Shown piece by piece: positions 10,729 to 52,726 of a DNA stretch of 64,000 nucleotides (positions are counted from its first letter, which is position 1; the number at the start of each line of letters is the position of its first letter). A model generated the notes under the pieces. The model did no database searches and was not told the DNA's origin. It worked only from the letters and a program-made list of their open reading frames with translations. A program made the position numbers and the translations under genes. The stretch is from Candidatus Wolfebacteria bacterium. Its GTDB lineage: Bacteria; Patescibacteriota; Minisyncoccia; UBA6257; UBA9933. The stretch spans positions 421 to 64,420 of the forward strand of contig JANLIR010000007.1 in assembly GCA_024654025.1 (NCBI GenBank). Direction: 5' to 3'.

Positions 10729-10845
10729 GGTTTTGTGAAAACTTGTTTTCTAAAACGTCTTATTTTGGTATGATTAAAGCAAGCAAGCTTTTTTGCAAAG
10801 CTGATTGTCAAAGGTCGAGCTGAAAAAAATTACACACAATTTAAA

Positions 10846-11388
10846 ATGAATAAAAAATTATTTGCAAAGATTTTAGGCGTGGCAATGATTGCGGTTTTAG
10901 CGGTTGTGGCTTTAAATGTGGCTTTTGCGGAAAATGACAATTCTTCAACGTCAGCCGTAAAATCAAAAGGCGGTACGTTGGGATGGGGTGAAATGAAGAA
11001 GCTTTCTGACTACGACAAAGAAGAAAGTAAAAGCGGCCAAGCGGTTATTATAAGAGCTAACGGCGATTTCCGAGTTAACGGCGTAACTGCCAATTCGGTG
11101 AATGCTTCTTCCAGCTTAATAAACGTTACGTTTTTTAATTTTACAAGAGACGTTAATGTTTCCGGAGCTAAAATAATGGGTGGAGGAAGGGCAATTTCTC
11201 TCTCTGATATTCAGGCTGGAGACAAGTTAAATGCCGCCGGCAATTATAACGCTTCAACTAAAGTTATAACTGTTTACGAGATACAAGACATCACTGCGCG
11301 CACGCAGAATATTTCCGAAATTCAGAAGAGAATCCAGCAATTAATGGATATGATTAATGCGCTTAAGGCTAAGTTGGGAATACAGTAA
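10846..11388 (+). CDS. secreted hypothetical protein
   Basis: signal peptide; no recognisable domain; terminator CCCCCCTCCGActtaaTTCGGAGGGGG at 11399-11436. Confidence 0.5.
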   Translation: MNKKLFAKILGVAMIAVLAVVALNVAFAENDNSSTSAVKSKGGTLGWGEMKKLSDYDKEESKSGQAVIIRANGDFRVNGVTANSVNASSSLINVTFFNFTRDVNVSGAKIMGGGRAISLSDIQAGDKLNAAGNYNASTKVITVYEIQDITARTQNISEIQKRIQQLMDMINALKAKLGIQ

Positions 11389-15044: not shown

Positions 15045-15077
15045 ATAATAATATATGTTAAAATAAATTTAATAAAT

Positions 15078-15209
15078 CCCGCACCTTTATTAGATTTAAA
15101 TTTTTAACGAAGCCAACGACAATTTAATTAATTTTGATATTTTTATAAAATAATGATTAGTTATAAATTAACAAAATTTTATTGCTTCGCGATCTAATAA
15201 AGGTGCGGG
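15078..15209. mobile_element. MITE-like palindromic element, family 1, copy 1
   Basis: terminal inverted repeats (T)CCCGCACCTTTATTAGAT ... ATCTAATAAAGGTGCGGG(A); flanked by TAAA/TAAA 4-bp direct repeats. Confidence 0.65.
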
Positions 15210-15231
15210 ATAAAATTAATTATTAAATAGT

Positions 15232-18758: not shown

Positions 18759-18759
18759 A

Positions 18760-18896
18760 CCCCGCACCTTTAGAAGATATTAACGCCCCGACGCTTTTAT
18801 TTAATATCGATATTTGTTTAAAAATATAGGCTTTTTATCATTGCCGCTTTTTACTAAAGGGCGTTTTTAAAAGCGTAATCTTCTAAAGGTGCGGGG
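18760..18896. mobile_element. MITE-like palindromic element, family 1, copy 2
   Basis: CCCCGCACCTTTAGAAGAT ... ATCTTCTAAAGGTGCGGGG; flanked by TAAA/TAAA. Confidence 0.65.
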
Positions 18897-18897
18897 T

Positions 18898-21379: not shown

Positions 21380-22855
21380 TTATTTTATTTCATCCCAGGA
21401 TAATATTTGGTAGCTGTCGCTTGTAAGAGGGAAGCTTGGCGGCGGGCTGTATAAAAGATTCGTGTCGTAAATAAGATTTCTTGTTTGATAGCCGGTGCCG
21501 TCAGTGTAAGCGAATCCGTATCTTTGGTTGGACATTATCATTCCGTAAAGAGTAATAGTGTTTCTTATGTGGTAAGGAGAACAGCGATCTTGATTGCTTC
21601 CTGGCGGCCGGAAATAATACCTTCCAACCCGTCCGTTTTGAGCTATTAGAGCGGCGTCTATTGTTAGAAAGTCCGAACTTTGCAAGCCGGCGTTGATGTT
21701 GCCCTGGGCTATGAGGCCGATCGTGTCACGGCCGTCAAAATTAGTATAAAGAAGATCGTTATTTACTGTTATGGCCCGCCAGTTGGACGGAGTTTCAGGA
21801 AACTTTGCGGCGGCTACGGTTATTCTGGCGGTATTTATTTGGCCGTCTATCCAGACATTATCCTCGATAAATATTAAGCCGTTTGCCGGAAAAGGATAAT
21901 TGGCTACAAATTGTTGAGCGCTGATTGTCCAGGTTCCCCAATCCTGTTCGCCTAAAACAGATATGCAGCCCTGAGGAGGGTTAAGAACCGAGGTGACGCG
22001 GTAAAAATCAAAAGTATCATTAGTTTTTAGGACGATATGATAGCCCTGATTGCCGGAACTGGAAGCGTAAAATCCGTTAGCTTGGGAGTCGGTTTTTATT
22101 TTAGTTAAATTTGCGCTGATACCGGTAAAGTCAACCGCTGGAACTGGAAATTGCCTGCCAGCCATAAAAACATCCGATCTATTCGGCACAGGAGATGTTG
22201 GCGGAGCTTCGCTTGGCCGGAAGTTATTGTTAACTGTATTTGCAGGCGGAAGGTCTTTGTGAGTATGGACTCCAAATTCGCTGTTACCGGAATGGTCAGG
22301 ATCTTTATAGGTGCCCAAAGCGCTAGAAACGATATTATGCGCCAGTCCGTCAACTCGCACGCCGTAATTGGAAAACAGTTCTCCGAAAATTTCCGTTCCT
22401 TGGCCAAACCGTACATTTGCATTTAAAACCGCGGCGTATTTTGCGAACGAAGGAATGCCCAATTTTACCTCGACTATTTTTTCGATAGTTGGGTCAGAAA
22501 GAACTTTTCCCGTAGATTTAATTACTACAATAGTAGACCCTATAGGCGGGGGAGTTATGTCTAAAATAAATTGGCCGATTTGAACTCCATTTTTGTCGAA
22601 ATAATTATGGATGTACGGTCCAGGCTGGCCGGTGCCGTCTTGATAATCATTGGCAGCGTGCGCTAAGTGCCAGCGGTAATATTCGATTCCCGATTCCGCG
22701 ATTGAAAGCGCCGATTCTTTTTCGTTGTATCTTGTCGCGGATTTTAAAGTAGCGTCGGCCCAGATTATAAATCCCGATAGAAAAATAACGGCAACGGCGC
22801 CATATATCAATACCTGGATTGCCAACGTTCCTTTTTGATTATAATTTTTTATCAT
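21380..22855 (-). CDS. PilX-like / type IV pilus minor component with large secreted domain
   Basis: N-terminal TM with PilX_N-like segment then ~450-aa Gly/Asn-rich beta-rich domain. Confidence 0.4.
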   Translation of the reverse strand: MIKNYNQKGTLAIQVLIYGAVAVIFLSGFIIWADATLKSATRYNEKESALSIAESGIEYYRWHLAHAANDYQDGTGQPGPYIHNYFDKNGVQIGQFILDITPPPIGSTIVVIKSTGKVLSDPTIEKIVEVKLGIPSFAKYAAVLNANVRFGQGTEIFGELFSNYGVRVDGLAHNIVSSALGTYKDPDHSGNSEFGVHTHKDLPPANTVNNNFRPSEAPPTSPVPNRSDVFMAGRQFPVPAVDFTGISANLTKIKTDSQANGFYASSSGNQGYHIVLKTNDTFDFYRVTSVLNPPQGCISVLGEQDWGTWTISAQQFVANYPFPANGLIFIEDNVWIDGQINTARITVAAAKFPETPSNWRAITVNNDLLYTNFDGRDTIGLIAQGNINAGLQSSDFLTIDAALIAQNGRVGRYYFRPPGSNQDRCSPYHIRNTITLYGMIMSNQRYGFAYTDGTGYQTRNLIYDTNLLYSPPPSFPLTSDSYQILSWDEIK

Positions 22856-22856
22856 A

Positions 22857-22997
22857 CCCGGTATTACAACTTCGATTATTTTTGGGTTAATTCTCGAAAT
22901 TGAAAATTAGTTAATATTTTTTGTTTTTTACCCAATATTGTTTATTCTAAAATCCTCAAAAATTTTATAGAGAATTTGTCGAAGTTGTAATACTGGG
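22857..22997. mobile_element. MITE-like palindromic element, family 2 (single copy)
   Basis: 19-bp TIRs CCCGGTATTACAACTTCGA ... TCGAAGTTGTAATACTGGG (18/19 complementary) exactly filling the intergenic gap; flanked by TCATA/TCATA 5-bp direct repeats. Confidence 0.65.
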
Positions 22998-25262
22998 TCA
23001 TAAATTTGTTCTTAAATTTCTTGGGGATATTTTTATAGAAAATTGTTGCGATGAATCGGCGTCTGCGTCTTTGGCGGTAACTTGGATGCCGATTTCGCGG
23101 ATAAGTGAAATATCTATAGGGTAGGGCATCGCTGGTTCAGAGCCGGAATAATTGGCGTCGTAATAAGAAAATATGCTTGAAGTGCTCATATCAAGATTGT
23201 GGACCATATCCGTGATAATTTGATTCGCCGGATTGTATACGAGCGGATTGCCAACGGGTTTAGTGACGCTTTTTTCAAGAATTGTGCTGCTTGTAAAATA
23301 TCTTACTTGTTCTATAACGTTGTCTCCGTCAATGTCGCTGAAAAACGTAAAAGAACTGGTGGTTGCTTCGGCAATCGGATAACCGCCGACAGCAGATATT
23401 CTCATTGAACGAATTTCGGGAATAACCGTTTGTTGGGTTTGTAAAAGTTCTTGTTGAATTCCTATTTCTCCGGTAAAGAAAGTTTCAAAATTTATGACAT
23501 TTCTGATGAAATATCCGATAAACAGCATAATCATAATCGCTATTCCCATGGCCACAAGAATTTCTATAAGAGTAAATGCGGATTCGTTTTTGGGCAAAAC
23601 TTTTTTTGTTTTTATGAAATAAATAGTCGCCGCTGCGGCAATTAAAAGCAGTACGATGAGCGCGACGTAAAAAATGTTTTTTGAGGAAAAGGGCGAGGTT
23701 TTGGGTGAGGCTAAAAAATCAACGGGCTTAGAAATTTTTTCAAAAACCTCGTTGTTATTCGAATAAATTATTGCTTTATATTTTCCCGCAGGTAAGTCGT
23801 TTAGAGTGGCGGCGCGGTTATTTTTAGAGACAAATATTTTTTTGACGAGTTTATAATTCTCGTCGAATATATCTATTAGATATCCGTTTGAAGGTTCAGA
23901 AACTGGCGATGACCAGGTGATATTTAATGTTTGATTGCTTTGAAAAATAGACAAAGAAGAAGGGAGGTTTTGACTTTGATTTGTTGTAGTGGAGGCGTTT
24001 AATAAAGTTTGTGTTGGCGGAGTGCTTGTGGGAGAAGTTGTCGGTAATGGTTGAGGCGGTTGCGTTACAGGTGGCTGTGTTGAGGGCGGTTGTGTCGTTG
24101 ATGGTTGAGTTGTTGATGGGGGTGTTTGTAGGGTAGTGAATTCAATATATTGGTTAGAGATATTTCCAAAAAGATCAACAGACATAATTGAGGCAAAATA
24201 GTTTGTGTTCGGCTGTAAAACATTTCCGGAATTGATCGCGTGTTCAAGTTCAAAAGTGGAGTCGCCGACGCTGGTAATAATTTGATATTTTTTAACAAGG
24301 CCGATTAAGACGCTGGAATTAGCTGGCTTATCGGTTGTCCAAGCAAACAGAGCGGAGTTTTGGCTTAGGGACAAAACGCGGATGTTTGAAATTACCGGGG
24401 GTACTGTGTCTGTTGGTGTTGAAGTTGAAGCGGTATAAGCGTTAACGCCGACAGTGCCATTAATGCCGGATTCATTGCCCCACTGGTCTTTTGCCAGTAT
24501 TTGATAATTATATTGGGTGTTTGGCAGTAAAGCGGAGAATATAGATTCGCAGGTTGTTATTGCTTGATTGCAAATTTGATAACCGTTTTTAAATGGATCG
24601 GTTTGTAATTGGGTTTTATCCGACGATTCGATCGTTATTTTGAAATCAACCGGCTCATTGGCGTTAAATTTTATGGAGGTGGTGGCGGAAGAAGTTGACG
24701 AAATTATATTTGAAAGCGCCGGAGGTAATAAATCAGAATTATCATAAAGAGCGAATTTAACGGAAAAACTTTGTTCAATTCCGGAAACAATCGCAGGCAT
24801 GACTATTTTTTCCAAAGGCGAATAAACGGCGTTATGTTCAAGCGGCTGGACTCGATTGGCGTAATAAATATTTATGTCCGCTGAAGCGCTGGAGATTTTA
24901 ATTTTATATGTTTGATCTCCGGTTACCGCTATTACTTGGCTGAAAGCTACATGGAATCGTTTTCCGCCCCAAGCAGGAGAAAGTATTGGCACGGAAACCG
25001 ATTTTGAAGACAAAGTTTGATTAGCGTTGTTTAAAAGAGAGACGGATATATTGCCCGAGGCGGAATTGTCGAGCCACAAATCAAAGCCGGAAATCAAGTC
25101 ATTGGAAACGATGAATGGCTGGATTATTTCTCCGCGGCGGGAAACAGAAAAATTATTGGATTCGTCCGGAGCGAATTCGAAATACTTAATTTCAGAAGTT
25201 TGCGCTAGTACCAAAGTTGGCGCGGCGATTAAAATGAACAATATGGCGATAATATATTTCAT
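22998..25262 (-). CDS. large secreted FN3/Ig-like protein with Pro/Thr linker, followed in the same frame by a pseudopilin-like segment
   Basis: signal peptide; FN3-like 'NTNYFASIMSVDLFGN'; PT-rich linker; TM; then 'ESAFTLIEILVAMGIAIMIM' prepilin-like motif ~220 aa from the C-terminus. Confidence 0.45.
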   Translation of the reverse strand: MKYIIAILFILIAAPTLVLAQTSEIKYFEFAPDESNNFSVSRRGEIIQPFIVSNDLISGFDLWLDNSASGNISVSLLNNANQTLSSKSVSVPILSPAWGGKRFHVAFSQVIAVTGDQTYKIKISSASADINIYYANRVQPLEHNAVYSPLEKIVMPAIVSGIEQSFSVKFALYDNSDLLPPALSNIISSTSSATTSIKFNANEPVDFKITIESSDKTQLQTDPFKNGYQICNQAITTCESIFSALLPNTQYNYQILAKDQWGNESGINGTVGVNAYTASTSTPTDTVPPVISNIRVLSLSQNSALFAWTTDKPANSSVLIGLVKKYQIITSVGDSTFELEHAINSGNVLQPNTNYFASIMSVDLFGNISNQYIEFTTLQTPPSTTQPSTTQPPSTQPPVTQPPQPLPTTSPTSTPPTQTLLNASTTTNQSQNLPSSLSIFQSNQTLNITWSSPVSEPSNGYLIDIFDENYKLVKKIFVSKNNRAATLNDLPAGKYKAIIYSNNNEVFEKISKPVDFLASPKTSPFSSKNIFYVALIVLLLIAAAATIYFIKTKKVLPKNESAFTLIEILVAMGIAIMIMLFIGYFIRNVINFETFFTGEIGIQQELLQTQQTVIPEIRSMRISAVGGYPIAEATTSSFTFFSDIDGDNVIEQVRYFTSSTILEKSVTKPVGNPLVYNPANQIITDMVHNLDMSTSSIFSYYDANYSGSEPAMPYPIDISLIREIGIQVTAKDADADSSQQFSIKISPRNLRTNL

Positions 25263-40170: not shown

Positions 40171-41196
40171 ATGGAATTCGATTTAAACAAAATAAAAAAA
40201 TCCGCTCAGGAGGCCATAGAAGAACTTGCCAGTCCGGAAAAACTAGAGGAAATAAAAATTAAATTTTTGGGCAGAAAAAGCGAACTCACCGAACTTTTGC
40301 GTTCTTTAAAGGATTTGTCGATTGAAGAAAGGCGTAAATTAGGTCCGAAGCTTCAAGAGTTAAAAAAAGAATTAGAAAGGTCTTTTGACAAAAGACTCAA
40401 AGATCTTCGTATTTCACATTCTACGCTTCGCGAACGCATTGACGTTACCAAGCCGGGGCATAAAATTACTTCCGGTCATATCCATCCCTTGTCAAAAATC
40501 GAAGAAGAAATCGAGCAGATTTTTTTATCAATGAATTTTTCCGTGGTTGAGGGTCCGGAAGTTGAAGATGAATACCACAATTTTGACGCCTTAAACATCC
40601 CCAAAGACCATCCGGCAAGGGAGATGTGGGACACATTTTGGCTTCGCCAAAATGAAATCAAAAATCAAAAATCAAAAATCAAAAATCCTGAAAAACTATT
40701 ACTAAGAACTCATACGAGTCCGATGCAGATACGCTATATGGAGAAAAATAATCCGCCTTTTCAAATTATTGTGCCAGGCAGGGTTTTTCGCTACGAGGCC
40801 ACTGACGCGTCGCATGAAATAAATTTTTATCAAGTAGAAGGGCTTATGGTTGGCAAAGATATGAGTTTGGCGAATTTTAAATTTGTCGTTGAGGAATTTT
40901 TTAAAAAGTTTTTCGGCAGCCAAAAAATAGAGTTTCGGTTCAGGCCGAGCTATTTTCCGTTTGTTGAGCCCGGGGTTGAAGTAGATATCAAATTAGGCAA
41001 AAGCGGCAAGTGGCTGGAAGTAATGGGCGCGGGCATGGTGCACAGAAAAGTTTTTGACGCTGTCGGCTATAACCCTAATGACGTAACGGGTTTTGCTTTT
41101 GGTCTTGGTTTAGAGCGCTTGGCGATGATTAAATACAAGATTCCGGACATCAGATTATTTTATTCGGGAGATTTGAGATTTATTAAGCAATTTTAA
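40171..41196 (+). CDS. pheS: phenylalanine--tRNA ligase alpha subunit
   Basis: class II aaRS motifs 'HPAREMWDTFW', 'LLRTHTSPMQIRYM', 'FRPSYFPFVEPG', 'GAGMVHRKV', 'GFAFGLGLERLAMI'. Confidence 0.95.
   Translation: MEFDLNKIKKSAQEAIEELASPEKLEEIKIKFLGRKSELTELLRSLKDLSIEERRKLGPKLQELKKELERSFDKRLKDLRISHSTLRERIDVTKPGHKITSGHIHPLSKIEEEIEQIFLSMNFSVVEGPEVEDEYHNFDALNIPKDHPAREMWDTFWLRQNEIKNQKSKIKNPEKLLLRTHTSPMQIRYMEKNNPPFQIIVPGRVFRYEATDASHEINFYQVEGLMVGKDMSLANFKFVVEEFFKKFFGSQKIEFRFRPSYFPFVEPGVEVDIKLGKSGKWLEVMGAGMVHRKVFDAVGYNPNDVTGFAFGLGLERLAMIKYKIPDIRLFYSGDLRFIKQF
40654..40688 (+). repeat. (AAAATCA)~5 heptanucleotide tandem repeat inside pheS
   Basis: gaaatcaaaaatcaaaaatcaaaaatcaaaaatcc encoding NEIKNQKSKIKNP in a variable surface loop. 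Confidence 0.8.
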
Positions 41197-41255
41197 AGGG
41201 CTTTGTCTAAATTTTGAAGCCGTCAGGCGAACAAAATTTAGATGCAAAACCTTTA

Positions 41256-41539
41256 CCCAGCACCTTTTTATGCATTATGTTTATATAATTCAAAGCAATA
41301 AAACGGGTGCTCTGTATTTTGGAAGAACCAATAATCTTGTTCAAAGATTAAAAGATCACAATAATGGAAGTAACTTTTCAACAAAAGAACAGAAACCGTG
41401 GCATTATGTTTATACCGAAGGCTATTTATCAGAAAAAGACGCAATACAACGAGAGTTAAAGTTGAAAAATTACGGCAACGCTAGAACATATGTCAGAAAA
41501 CGAATTCAAAACAGTTTAAAATAATAAAAAGGTGCTGGG
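41256..41539 (+). mobile_element. GIY-YIG gene cassette bounded by 17-bp perfect inverted repeats
   Basis: ACCCAGCACCTTTTTAT (41255-41271) and ATAAAAAGGTGCTGGGT (41524-41540) abut the start and stop codons of the GIY-YIG ORF; the IR core CCC(A/G)GCACCTTT resembles the family-1 MITE TIR. Confidence 0.5.
41270..41524 (+). CDS. GIY-YIG nuclease superfamily small protein (UPF0213/YhbQ-like)
   Basis: 'YVYIIQSNKTGALYFGRTNNLVQRLKDHN' GIY-(x10)-YIG with conserved R and E/N. Confidence 0.75.
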   Translation: MHYVYIIQSNKTGALYFGRTNNLVQRLKDHNNGSNFSTKEQKPWHYVYTEGYLSEKDAIQRELKLKNYGNARTYVRKRIQNSLK

Positions 41540-41599
41540 TGCTCAATTTTATAGTAAAATTGACTGCGCCTACGGCTTGTAAATTTTAATAAAATTGGC

Positions 41600-43675
41600 A
41601 TGAAATTCTCGTATAAATTATTAAAACAATTAGTTCCGCAGATAAAAAACCAAAACGAGTTGGTTGATAAATTGACAATGCACGCGTTTGAAATTGACAG
41701 CGTGAAAGGGGATACGATTGACATAAAACTTCCGCCAAACAGATATTCAGACGCTGGATCGCATATTGGAATAGCGCGTGAAATTGCGGCAATTTCAAAC
41801 TACAAACTTAAAACTAAAAACTACGGACAAAAAGAAAAAAATAAAAAGAAATCGTATTTTAACGTAAAAATCCAGGATAAAAATTTATGTCCGCGTTACA
41901 CTGCTCAATACTTTGAAAATATTAAAATAAGCGCGTCTCCGAAATGGATACAGGATGTTTTAAAAACCTGCGGATTAAGGCCGATAAATAATGTCGTGGA
42001 CATAATGAATTACGTAATGCTTGAAACCGGCCAGCCTTTGCACGCGTTTGATTACGACAAACTTTACGCTAAAGGCGGAAAACAACCAACGATAATTATA
42101 AGAAAAGCGAATAAAGGAGAAAAAATAATCTCGCTTGACGGCGAAAAGTACAATTTAGACCCGGATGTTTTAGTTATTTCCGACGAAAAAGAAGTGTTGG
42201 CAATTGCCGGCATAAAAGGCGGCAAGATTGCGGAAGTGGACAAAAATACAAAAAGAATTATTGTTGAATCCGCAAATTTTGATCCCGTTAACATATATAA
42301 AACTTCAAAAAAACTTTTGCTTTCAACAGACGCTTCTTTAAGATTTTCGCGGAATTTAAGCCCTGAACTGGCGATTTTAGGCTTAAATAGAGCGGGGCAG
42401 TTGCTTATAGAGATCGCCAAAGCGTCTTCTGGCGCAGTTATCGATGTTTATCCAAAAAAGCAGTCTAAAAAAATAGTAAAATTCGACACAGAAAGATTTA
42501 GAAAATTTATCGGATTAGGTTTGGATTTTAAAACCTTCAAAAATTATTTTGAAAGTTTAGGGTTTATCGTTAAAGTTCCGGCTGACCAATTAACTAATTC
42601 GCCAATTAACCAGTTCTTTGTGGAGGTTTCACTGTTTCGCGTTGATATTGAAACATTTGAGGATTTAGCGGAAGAGATAGTCAGACTATACGGTTATGGT
42701 AAATTAAAATCAGTTCCGCCGTACGCGTTTTTAAAACCTTCCGGATTCGAGGATCAAATAGTTTTAAAAAATAAAATCAGAAAAATTTTAACCGGAATCG
42801 GATTAAGCGAAATTTATAACTATTCTTTTATTTCCGATAAGGAAGGCGAGTTAGATTTCGGGTTTGCTAAAAATAAATTAATCGAACTCGAAAATCCCAT
42901 TAGCAGTCAGTTCAAATATTTAAGGCCTAATTTAGAAATCGGTCTTGTTAAAAACATAAGCGATAACAGCCGGTTTTTTAACGAAGTTCATATTTTTGAG
43001 ATTGGTAAGATTTTTTCCGCCGGAGGCGGACCCGCTGATGGCGGGGAAATCGGTAAAGTTTTTTCCGCCAAAGGCGGATCCGCCTATGGAGGGCAGGCCG
43101 GTAAAGAAACATTGGCGTTAGGGATGATTTTATCCGACAAAAATCAGGAGACGTTTTTTAAATTAAAAGGGATTATTTCCGCGCTATTTAAGAAAATCGG
43201 CCTGGTGAACTATTCTTTTACCGAATCCGAAGCAAATGTTTTGCTTATAAAATCAGGAAATAAGTTTTTGGGCAGTATTAGAAAAAAATATGACTCGCCT
43301 AAAAAACAAATTTCTTCAGCGGAAATAAATTTGGACGAACTTCTGGTTTTAATCGAGGGAGAACACGAATTCCGGCCGCTTCCGAAATTTCCCTCTGTTA
43401 TGCGGGACATTTCTATTGCCGTTTTAGAGTCCGCAAAAGTTGGAAATATTATTGAGGAGATCCAGGAGGCAAACATGAAATACATCGAAGACGTTGATTT
43501 AATAGATGAATACGATTTAACAAAATCAAATTCTTCCGCCGATAAAGGCGTAAGCTATACTTTTCGAATTATTTTCCAAGCCCCTGACCGGACCTTAACC
43601 GACCAAGAAGTTGACAAGGAGATGGAGAAAATTATTTCAATTTTAAAAAATAAGTTTCGCGCTTCTTTGAGATAA
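41600..43675 (+). CDS. pheT: phenylalanine--tRNA ligase beta subunit
   Basis: N-terminal tRNA-binding/B3-4 and B5 domains, C-terminal FDX-ACB; contains an in-frame 48-nt tandem duplication. Confidence 0.9.
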   Translation: MKFSYKLLKQLVPQIKNQNELVDKLTMHAFEIDSVKGDTIDIKLPPNRYSDAGSHIGIAREIAAISNYKLKTKNYGQKEKNKKKSYFNVKIQDKNLCPRYTAQYFENIKISASPKWIQDVLKTCGLRPINNVVDIMNYVMLETGQPLHAFDYDKLYAKGGKQPTIIIRKANKGEKIISLDGEKYNLDPDVLVISDEKEVLAIAGIKGGKIAEVDKNTKRIIVESANFDPVNIYKTSKKLLLSTDASLRFSRNLSPELAILGLNRAGQLLIEIAKASSGAVIDVYPKKQSKKIVKFDTERFRKFIGLGLDFKTFKNYFESLGFIVKVPADQLTNSPINQFFVEVSLFRVDIETFEDLAEEIVRLYGYGKLKSVPPYAFLKPSGFEDQIVLKNKIRKILTGIGLSEIYNYSFISDKEGELDFGFAKNKLIELENPISSQFKYLRPNLEIGLVKNISDNSRFFNEVHIFEIGKIFSAGGGPADGGEIGKVFSAKGGSAYGGQAGKETLALGMILSDKNQETFFKLKGIISALFKKIGLVNYSFTESEANVLLIKSGNKFLGSIRKKYDSPKKQISSAEINLDELLVLIEGEHEFRPLPKFPSVMRDISIAVLESAKVGNIIEEIQEANMKYIEDVDLIDEYDLTKSNSSADKGVSYTFRIIFQAPDRTLTDQEVDKEMEKIISILKNKFRASLR
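43001..43096 (+). repeat. 2 x 48-nt in-frame tandem duplication within pheT (IGKIFSAGGGPADGGE / IGKVFSAKGGSAYGGQ)
   Basis: ~75% identical adjacent 48-mers. Confidence 0.75.
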
Positions 43676-50502: not shown

Positions 50503-50619
50503 GTTGGAAATTTTTTGGTTGCCCCAATACTCTCGCTTTAGGCGAGAGAGTCGAGACATAAGGCTCCTCGACTAACACCTGTGTCCGCAAAGCGGACATC
50601 GATCAATTTTCGAATTTAA

Positions 50620-52150
<1,531 letters not shown>

Positions 52151-52409: not shown

Positions 52410-52546
52410 ACCCCGCACCTTTAAAAGATATTAACGCCTCGCCGCTTTATTTAGTATCGATATTTATTTAAAATATGGGTTTTTACTAATGCCGATTTTT
52501 ACTAAAAGGCGTTTTTTAAAAAGCGCAATCTTTTAAAGGTGCGGGG
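52410..52546. mobile_element. MITE-like palindromic element, family 1, copy 3
   Basis: CCCCGCACCTTTAAAAGAT ... ATCTTTTAAAGGTGCGGGG, flanked by TCAA/TCAA; interior ~85% identical to copy 2. Confidence 0.65.
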
Positions 52547-52726
52547 TCAACCCTTTTCGATTAAATGTGGATAAGTCTATTTGAGTTCTTGCGGCCTATG
52601 CTATAATAAAAACAATATCGAAACCGCAGTATTTTGTTTCGATTTTAAATAATTTGAAAAGGTCGAGATGAAAATCTACAAGTCGATTAATTTTTTACAG
52701 AAATAAAAAAGGAATAAAAATAATTC

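Follow-up and report, generated by a model that had tools for sequence, protein, structure and literature searches.

A family of short inverted-repeat elements at start codons in Wolfebacteria-like genomes of the candidate phyla radiation

Introduction

Bacterial MITEs (miniature inverted-repeat transposable elements) are usually described in intergenic DNA, where they occupy short, often palindromic targets in either orientation. Here we analyze a MITE-like element of 141 bp with 19-bp terminal inverted repeats (TIRs), which separates two pilus genes in a 64,000-nucleotide stretch of contig JANLIR010000007.1 from a Candidatus Wolfebacteria bacterium (the window), together with the family of copies to which it belongs. 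The family has the small size, the TIRs, a duplication visible between an empty and a filled site, and the dispersed, polymorphic copies by which MITEs are recognized; no autonomous insertion sequence (IS) partner was found. Structurally and functionally it belongs with the Correia, ERIC and bcr1 elements.

The Correia (NEMIS) elements of Neisseria likewise measure 100-160 bp, have TIRs and no open reading frame (ORF), lie between genes and are co-transcribed with them, a property that is inferred for the present family; their TIR hairpins are RNase III substrates. Correia elements duplicate TA, insert in either orientation, reach hundreds of copies, carry IHF sites and promoter hexamers, and show no start-codon specificity, whereas the family described here has few copies per genome, an ATG-containing repeat instead of a TA duplication, and a fixed orientation. 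ERIC/IRU elements of enterobacteria and Yersinia and the bcr1 elements of the Bacillus cereus group are similar in size, are transcribed within operons as whole-element hairpins, and have orientation-dependent effects on mRNA, with bcr1 duplicating a specific AT-rich 5-bp sequence, TTTAT. To our knowledge, neither group has been reported to abut start codons systematically, and our family has no sequence similarity to them and no Rfam match.

Other systems share single features. IS1380 and piggyBac elements have termini starting with CC(C) and short duplications, 4-5 bp long, of one particular tetranucleotide (for piggyBac, TTAA next to CCC termini), of which the CCC...GGG termini of the present family are reminiscent; its repeats are 3-5 bp, variable in register and ATG-containing, and no transposase partner was found. 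The PATEs of the IS200/IS605 group are small, hairpin-rich and non-coding and insert by a short motif with strand and orientation specificity, but they lack TIRs and target duplications, in contrast to the 19-bp TIRs that reach the ends here. Rickettsia palindromic elements (RPEs) are small palindromic mobile elements whose placement is frame-constrained by essential genes that they do not destroy; RPEs lie in frame inside coding sequence and are translated, while the present family lies just outside the ORF at its ATG. REP/BIME sequences, which are GC-rich imperfect palindromes of 20-40 nt associated with RAYT proteins, are unlike a 141-bp element with an AT-rich interior and 19-bp TIRs. The ATG-containing duplication, the exclusive start-codon placement and the fixed orientation thus set this family apart from those that can be named.

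Results

The window element and its family

On the plus strand the window element is laid out as TTTTTTA-TCATA-CCCGGTATTACAACTTCGA-(103 nt)-TCGAAGTTGTAATACTGGG-TCATA-AATTT (Table 1). An earlier account made from the letters of the window (the sequence-only reading) had proposed a 141-bp element with 19-bp TIRs differing at one position, and the analysis bears this out: over 19 nt the arms pair everywhere except at position 4 (G versus A), and with the adjacent A/T included they reach 20 nt at 95% complementarity. The TCATA repeats it placed on either side are both present, and the element fills exactly the space between the TGA of the upstream gene and the ATG of the downstream gene, two minus-strand ORFs that abut it. 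A search of the 64 kb for the arm, allowing up to 3 mismatches, returned these two sites only, with 0.03 expected by chance and two or more found in 0 of 100 shuffles. The sense RNA of the insert, described there as a structured spacer, is predicted to fold into a single long helix that the arms close (-43.1 kcal/mol, z = -7.25 versus shuffles).

Table 1. Features of the window element, sites occupied by the family, and the window junction in relatives. Three-digit handles (L001 and so on) denote compared sequences and are distinct from ribosomal proteins such as L5; aa, amino acids; CPR, candidate phyla radiation; uORF, upstream ORF.
Feature	Position or sequence	Strand	Remarks
Non-autonomous inverted-repeat element (MITE-like), 141 bp	22857..22997	- (sense = strand of flanking genes)	Family profile E = 3.5e-38
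5' TIR in sense orientation, CCCAGTATTACAACTTCGA	22979..22997	-	Adjoins stop codon of upstream gene; arm nearly invariant in 11 aligned copies
3' TIR in sense orientation, TCGAAGTTGTAATACCGGG	22857..22875	-	Start-codon side in every copy
Upstream direct repeat, sense TATGA	22998..23002	-	TGA stop 23000-22998 of 754-aa gene and orphan ATG 23001-22999
Downstream direct repeat, sense TATGA	22852..22856	-	ATG 22855-22853 of 491-aa gene
19-codon uORF	22942..23001	-	From orphan upstream ATG through 5' arm; stop inside element
Upstream gene, 754 aa: surface-protein part and pseudopilin-like C-terminal part	22998..25262	-	N-methyl motif at residues 558-581
Downstream gene, 491 aa: conserved CPR pilus-operon protein, N-terminal transmembrane segment	21380..22855	-	Start codon is the insertion target
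Site: 491-aa pilus gene	Window, L041		
Site: L29|S17	L009, L024, L035		
Site: L24|L5	L012, L035		
Site: rpoB|rpoC	L013		
Site: before pilB	L018		
Site: before lepB	L029		Divergent intergenic region with pth
Site: before 141-aa ORF	L030		
Site: before rplT	L037		88 nt after rpmI
Site: before ileS	L038, L040		
Site: S5|L15	L024, L035		Both cut
Window junction	L001		TAA + 29 nt
Window junction	L005		TAA-ATG abutting
Window junction	L047		TGA + 5 nt
Window junction	L049		TAA + 11 nt
Window junction	L048 (68%-identical relative)		Unrelated ~190-bp palindrome-rich insert between upstream TAA and real ATG

To find further copies, the arm query CCCRGTATTACAACTTCGA was scanned over 185,579 species-representative genomes, and metagenomes and viral contigs were scanned too. 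The genomes gave 12 loci. Four of these belong to JAJYNK01, each a paired-arm element (134-144 bp) located away from the window junction; the others are lone arms within GC-rich coding DNA from unrelated phyla, and about nine such matches are expected by chance, as estimated from the size of the collection. Single-arm matches of this kind, among them about 14 from metagenomes, were judged to be chance or gene homology in unrelated taxa. From the metagenomes came additional complete copies, plus three that are truncated at contig ends; the viral contigs gave 0 matches to the TIR, and a search of 408 kb of compared sequence with a profile of the copies detected no further copy, degenerate or intact. 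On this count the family has 10 independent insertion sites among related CPR genomes from groundwater. The sequence-only reading had called the element MITE-like and named a search for other copies as a check; the same TIRs do recur at unrelated loci with flanking duplications, including one pair of empty and filled sites, and neither a relative with the same spacer but no TIRs or duplication nor copies without flanking duplications were encountered.

Copies range from 134 to 171 bp and have no coding capacity beyond short uORFs in inconsistent frames. In all of them the 19-bp arms lie at the extreme ends with 0-2 mismatches, and the arms are much better conserved than the interior, which contains indels. 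The window element is 80-93% identical to copies at other loci; the S17 copy, found in three lineages, retains 87-93% identity, close to that of the flanking coding DNA. In one of these lineages (L024, 3834-4004) the S17 copy reaches 171 bp and has a nested 30-bp palindromic segment (CTAATCCCACACATATGATTATGTATGGGATTA region) in its 3' half.

Two contigs end inside copies (L035, 8569-8619; L041, 3269-3338) and the L024 locus at 1-88 is cut in a third, suggesting that such repeats break short-read metagenome assemblies of these genomes. A separate observation concerns L019 (2711-2746), where the 5' arm occurs as a perfect 19-nt match immediately after TTTATGAA, just as a membrane-protein ORF (MNPVLQLRS...) begins, and leads on into a short palindrome; this may be an element remnant absorbed into a coding N-terminus, or a chance match.

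Placement at start codons

The defining property of the family is where it sits. At all nine fully visible sites the arm following AAATAATCGAAGTTGTAATACYGGG is succeeded by a (T)ATG that opens a long, recognizable gene, namely those for S17 (rpsQ), L5 (rplE), RpoC, L20 (rplT), IleS, LepB, PilB, the 141-aa ORF and the 491-aa pilus protein; at the tenth, S5|L15, the ATG-containing upstream junction is visible 5 nt past the S5 stop. Five sites have TATG as the flanking repeat, the window has TATGA, lepB has ATGA, ileS has ATG, rplT has ATGC/ATGA and the 141-aa ORF has ACG/ATG; ATG is the sole constant of these 3-5-bp repeats. Beyond T(-1)ATG and a weak preference for A at +4 and +6, the target context is merely AT-rich. 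The null expectation was taken from a crude gene call on the window, considering positions where insertion would not disrupt a gene: start codons account for 28% of the ATGs and 34% of the TATGs at such positions, and nine of nine on start codons has p ~1e-5 to 6e-5 under random (T)ATG insertion plus purifying selection.

These observations shift the emphasis of the sequence-only reading, which had centred on an ATGA stop/start overlap. Insertion at an ATG start codon, in one orientation, is a trait of the whole family, with or without an upstream gene next to it, and the usual repeat is the 4-bp TATG, the 5-bp repeat of the window being exceptional. Had the duplication at the window junction been TATG, the upstream ORF would have continued into the element for 24 codons. 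At lepB, too, the repeat is ATGA, and there its TGA is no stop codon, indicating that the extra A is not tied specifically to stop codons.

Orientation relative to the gene is identical at 10 of 10 sites. A replication-strand effect was considered and is weakened by GC skew, the sign of which differs between copies: pilus copies lie on the negative-skew strand and ribosomal-protein copies on the positive. Orientation thus goes with the gene rather than with the strand of replication, as far as GC skew can tell. Either the mechanism, by recognizing its target asymmetrically, or selection could underlie the bias; in the second case an antisense element would bring U-runs after hairpins into the operon mRNA, whereas every copy has an A-rich interior when read in the sense orientation.

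A second subfamily was found at S5|L15. In JAJYNK01 (JAJYNK010000039.1; L012 4939-5093, plus strand) a 155-bp element abuts the start codon of rplO, which encodes L15. Its arms, CCCAGTAGTGAAAAAACGAT and ATCGTTTTTCTACTACGGGG, are complementary at 17 of 20 positions and are flanked by TATG/TATG, yet about half of the positions differ from the main-family arms, with complementarity kept. At this same junction, where S5 directly precedes L15 with no L30 gene between, L024 and L035 carry the main family instead, and the flanking genes are 93% identical between lineages. Arms so diverged and still complementary, next to genes so similar, mark this as an independent insertion at the same start codon rather than divergence in situ. 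This second hit on the L15 start speaks for a choice of position by the insertion machinery, and not for filtering by selection only.

Empty and filled sites

The clearest empty site is at L24|L5, where L024 reads AATCTAATTT-TATG-AAGAACG and both L035 and L012 read AATTTAATTT-TATG-[element]-TATG-AAAAACG, the empty and filled flanks aligning without gaps over 710 nt at 91% identity. On these alignments the pair is an ordinary target duplication, and it formally also fits an element ending in TATG that inserted after TATG. Presence/absence polymorphism is seen at the window junction and at pilB as well as at L5. The nearest available genome, the metagenome-assembled genome (MAG) DBS2-4.bin65 (JAJYNK01), and three near-identical contigs share 82-91% DNA identity with the window across the syntenic operon; JAJYNK01 has copies at L29|S17, L24|L5, rpoB|rpoC and pilB and none at the window junction, and the window is without the copy that JAJYNK01 has before pilB.

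At the window junction itself the sister contigs lack the element and read AATTTATAA-TAG...(29 nt)...-ATG, their downstream protein being 5 aa longer at the N-terminus. The sequence-only reading had proposed a pre-insertion TATGA in which stop and start overlapped, and that the orthologous junction of relatives would display it without the insert. Half of this expectation is borne out, as the sister genome does lack the insert; what it has there is TAA + 29 nt and not TATGA. The reconstructed empty site is collinear with the sister sequence L001 across the insertion point (TTTATGATAAAAAATTATAATC versus TTTATAATAGACGAATAATACC, followed by 48 extra nt in L001), indicating that the window flanks were once contiguous. 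The proposed overlap is consistent with this collinearity but was seen in no relative, and an ancestral stop/start overlap is a reasonable if unproven reading of the alignment. The accompanying logic holds on the sequence, in that a TATGA duplication leaves an intact TGA on one side and an intact ATG on the other.

Judged from the arrangements in Table 1, the junction is evolutionarily labile among relatives, of which L005, L047, L048 and L049 are more distant than L001. The insert in L048 (1005-1200) is bracketed by ATGA...ATGA and begins with an orphan ATG. Only one other sequence, L041 from Hainich groundwater, belongs to the window's own lineage; its overall identity to the window is 92.8%, its upstream flank, GAACAAATTTATGA|CCCAG, is the same, and the element is already in place; this is one and the same insertion, in a close relative. 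Exact-protein look-ups with the 491-aa protein, PilB and PilC for same-species contigs with an empty site returned no record.

Host translation and the predicted RNA

The 16S rRNA gene of the window (50613-52150, minus strand) has the 3' end GTGCGTGGAATAATTAAATT at ~50613-50640, with no CCUCC anti-Shine-Dalgarno (anti-SD) sequence in or after it, by comparison with the E. coli 3' end. SD-like tetramers at -20..-4 precede 9 of 57 crude gene calls, against a background of 9% of random 17-mers. The missing anti-SD and the few SD-like tetramers together point to SD-independent initiation in this host, in which case insertion directly before an ATG destroys no ribosome-binding site.

The orphan upstream ATG retains the native upstream context. 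In 11 of 12 copies it starts a uORF of 11-30 codons, which crosses the 5' arm before ending in the AT-rich interior. Copies inside operons have the preceding stop codon 0-7 nt away from the helix. At all filled sites, positions -20 to -1 relative to the real AUG are predicted to pair almost fully, and in elements of the TATG type four further pairs come from the two UAUG copies, placing the real AUG itself in the predicted stem. No conserved peptide was found, uORF frames varying between copies. Rfam 15 gave no match at the gathering score and chance-level matches only (E > 1) at a relaxed threshold, and the consensus fold shows covariation at no more than one stem position, which amounts to no evidence for a selected RNA structure. 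A promoter and terminator scan found one weak promoter-like match in the 5' arm that is not conserved among copies, with counts at shuffle level.

Flanking genes and other mobile elements

The pilus operon proposed by the sequence-only reading is present as one minus-strand block with a T2SSE ATPase, a T2SSF protein and several proteins with prepilin N-methyl motifs. Homologues of the 491-aa protein number over 4000, reach 92% identity and all come from CPR/Parcubacteria; named sources include Wolfebacteria, Zambryskibacteria and Yanofskybacteria. In relative L005 the region of the 754-aa gene is occupied by two overlapping genes of 564 and 214 aa, and the window and its sister genome, with a single ORF, would thus carry a gene fusion or a lost stop.

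A different MITE family, here termed CCCGCACC after its motif, has arms ACCCCGCACCTTTAGAAGAT and copies of ~139 bp at 18759-18897 and 52410-52547, and a degenerate one at ~15077-15210. Its flanking repeats are 4 bp, TAAA (including the TAA stop of a MacB-like gene) and TCAA. The copy at 18759 is absent at the orthologous site of the sister genome (L001, ~10800-10880), which has a 10-bp tandem duplication ATACGAGTAA/ATACGAATAA there instead. The 141-bp element had been assigned to the same size class as this family with different TIRs, and so it proves, the likeness being limited to the CCC/GGG tips.

One sister MAG alone has, just upstream of the 754-aa pilus gene, a 712-bp IS1595-family IS (L003, 502-1213) with a 219-aa DDE_Tnp_IS1595 ORF. 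Its 21-bp TIRs, GGGTCTTGTCTAGAAGATTTT, are perfect, and the duplication, ATAAACAA, is 8 bp long; its TIR has the octamer TAGAAGAT in common with the CCCGCACC arm. As an autonomous partner of the 141-bp family this IS was ruled out by its TIR, GGGTCTTG, and its 8-bp target-site duplication.

Between pheS (40171-41196) and pheT (41600-43675) the window also contains a GIY-YIG nuclease cassette (41255-41540), with an ORF of 84 aa (41270-41524) framed by 17-bp inverted repeats ACCCAGCACCTTTTTAT/ATAAAAAGGTGCTGGGT. Homologues at 65-77% identity occur in L042 and L044 (1501-1755), L045 (1501-1764) and L046 (1501-1755), and the unit is found in four unrelated contexts: trxB|gapA, T2SSE|T2SSF, DUF8128|TraG-like and pheS|pheT. 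All share the flanks GCAAAACCTT(T)ACCCAGCACCTTTTT-ATG ... TAA-AAAGGTGCTGGGTGCTCAATTTT, and from this arrangement the unit looks like a compact mobile cassette.

Discussion

The family is probably a non-autonomous TIR transposon, that is a MITE, which is inserted in trans at (T)ATG start codons, is passively co-transcribed, and is confined to a clade of Wolfebacteria-like CPR. A transposase supplied in trans would insert the element at (T)ATG and duplicate 3-5 bp that always include the ATG. In the window, insertion would have occurred at the meeting point of the two pilus genes, with the start of the 491-aa one overlapping the stop of the 754-aa one or coming directly after it; TGA would thus have been left by the duplication on one side and ATG on the other. 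The element would be co-transcribed with the operon, and its terminal stem of 19-23 bp would loop out the 141 nt, so that the foot of the helix brings the old initiation context (upstream flank and orphan ATG) beside the real AUG. Ribosomes that terminate at the upstream stop, or that translate the uORF, may open the 5' arm and make the real AUG accessible; the alternative would be cleavage of the stem by RNase III. Initiation independent of SD pairing would allow insertions to be tolerated even in ribosomal-protein and rpoBC operons.

Several points weigh against this interpretation. The scans of genomes, metagenomes and viral contigs brought up neither a cognate transposase nor an autonomous element with these TIRs, and none of them showed a TIR pair more than 400 bp apart; this absence is weak evidence, as MAGs under-represent IS elements. 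Neither the irregular flanking repeat, which is not expected of a fixed staggered cut, nor the strict single orientation, unlike the usual insertion of TIR transposons in both orientations, is typical, and a 3-4-bp target alone cannot account for exclusive use of start codons. The predicted single-TATGA empty allele (AACAAATTTATGATAAAAAATT; AAATTTATGATAAAAAATT) is absent from every relative compared. A paired AUG, as predicted for TATG-type copies, would be expected to inhibit initiation, and transcription, processing and any translational effect of the element are themselves inferred. Finally, the sample amounts to about a dozen complete copies, all from fragmented MAGs.

A bolder proposition, which we regard as unlikely though not negligible, is that several families of hairpin elements actively home to start sites, with recognition extending beyond a 4-bp motif, and persist because the helix hides the insertion from SD-independent ribosomes or even benefits them. 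Such recognition could operate, for example, through the DNA or RNA context of the initiation region, or through integration coupled to transcription or translation.

Selection rather than insertion preference could also have produced the pattern, if the element were an exapted cis-acting RNA module retained at start codons as, possibly, an RNase III site that uncouples cistrons, a translational-coupling device, or a regulator binding site for translation-machinery genes. The copies in ribosomal-protein operons, rpoBC, ileS, lepB and pilus genes, several of them common to diverged genomes, the S17 copy that has kept pace with its flanking coding DNA in three lineages, the strictly fixed orientation and a host without an anti-SD would all suit such a module. 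So would the strong conservation of the arms relative to the interior, except that binding by a transposase predicts it equally well. Covariation no further than one stem position, the lack of an Rfam family match and an interior that is poorly conserved, with indels and even a 30-bp nested insert, speak against a selected RNA; furthermore, close relatives differ in presence or absence at the same junctions, such that no copy is indispensable. We therefore rate this explanation as rather improbable and retain that of a passively co-transcribed MITE.

The chances are slimmer that the element transposes as a single strand (IS200/IS605-type, PATE-like) or by a site-specific recombinase, inserting 3' of an ATG and bringing its own terminal (T)ATG without true duplication. 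A mechanism of this type would explain the fixed orientation and the constancy of ATG beside varying neighbour bases, it is formally compatible with the L24|L5 pair, and the TIR core CAACTTCGA indeed recurs in a sub-terminal position and is able to fold into a local 3' hairpin. Inverted repeats of 19 bp that reach the very termini are nevertheless a hallmark of DDE-type elements and differ from IS200/IS605 ends, orientation tracks the gene and not the replication strand (weak evidence, from GC skew), and no Y1 or serine-recombinase partner was found. Precise models of either kind fail to fit the extra A/C between the upstream ATG and CCC in three copies, or the variable 3' T.

Derivation from, or mobilization by, the small GIY-YIG nuclease cassette of the same genome is very improbable. 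Its ORF in the window is framed by ACCC...GGGT-type inverted repeats (ACCCAGCACC, 41255-41540), the cassette recurs with identical flanks in other genomic contexts, and both units begin with (A)CCC, end with GGG(T) and sit between genes of essential operons; past CCC/GGG there is no sequence similarity, the cassettes have longer conserved flanks without ATG duplication and do not abut start codons, and no copy of the main family has an ORF. A chance palindrome or native non-mobile spacer, for which nothing speaks beyond the AT-rich context, is refuted by the specific repeats at unrelated loci and the clean empty site.

A literature search of incomplete coverage found no earlier description of MITEs in CPR, of MITEs that target start codons, or of anti-SD loss in Patescibacteria.

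A family that lies on start codons only, in one orientation, in the best-conserved operons that the cell has (spc, rpoBC and infC-rpmI-rplT) would, if this account is true, represent a distinct insertion strategy. Were active homing to prove correct, the element would be a mobile, modular coupling or processing signal that spreads through ribosomal-protein, RNA-polymerase and pilus operons. For annotation, CPR operons gain orphan ATGs, short uORFs and 140-nt spacers through these inserts, which may also be mistaken for regulatory RNAs. The inserts further provide a natural experiment on how ribosomes without an anti-SD find an AUG at the foot of a 20-bp helix.

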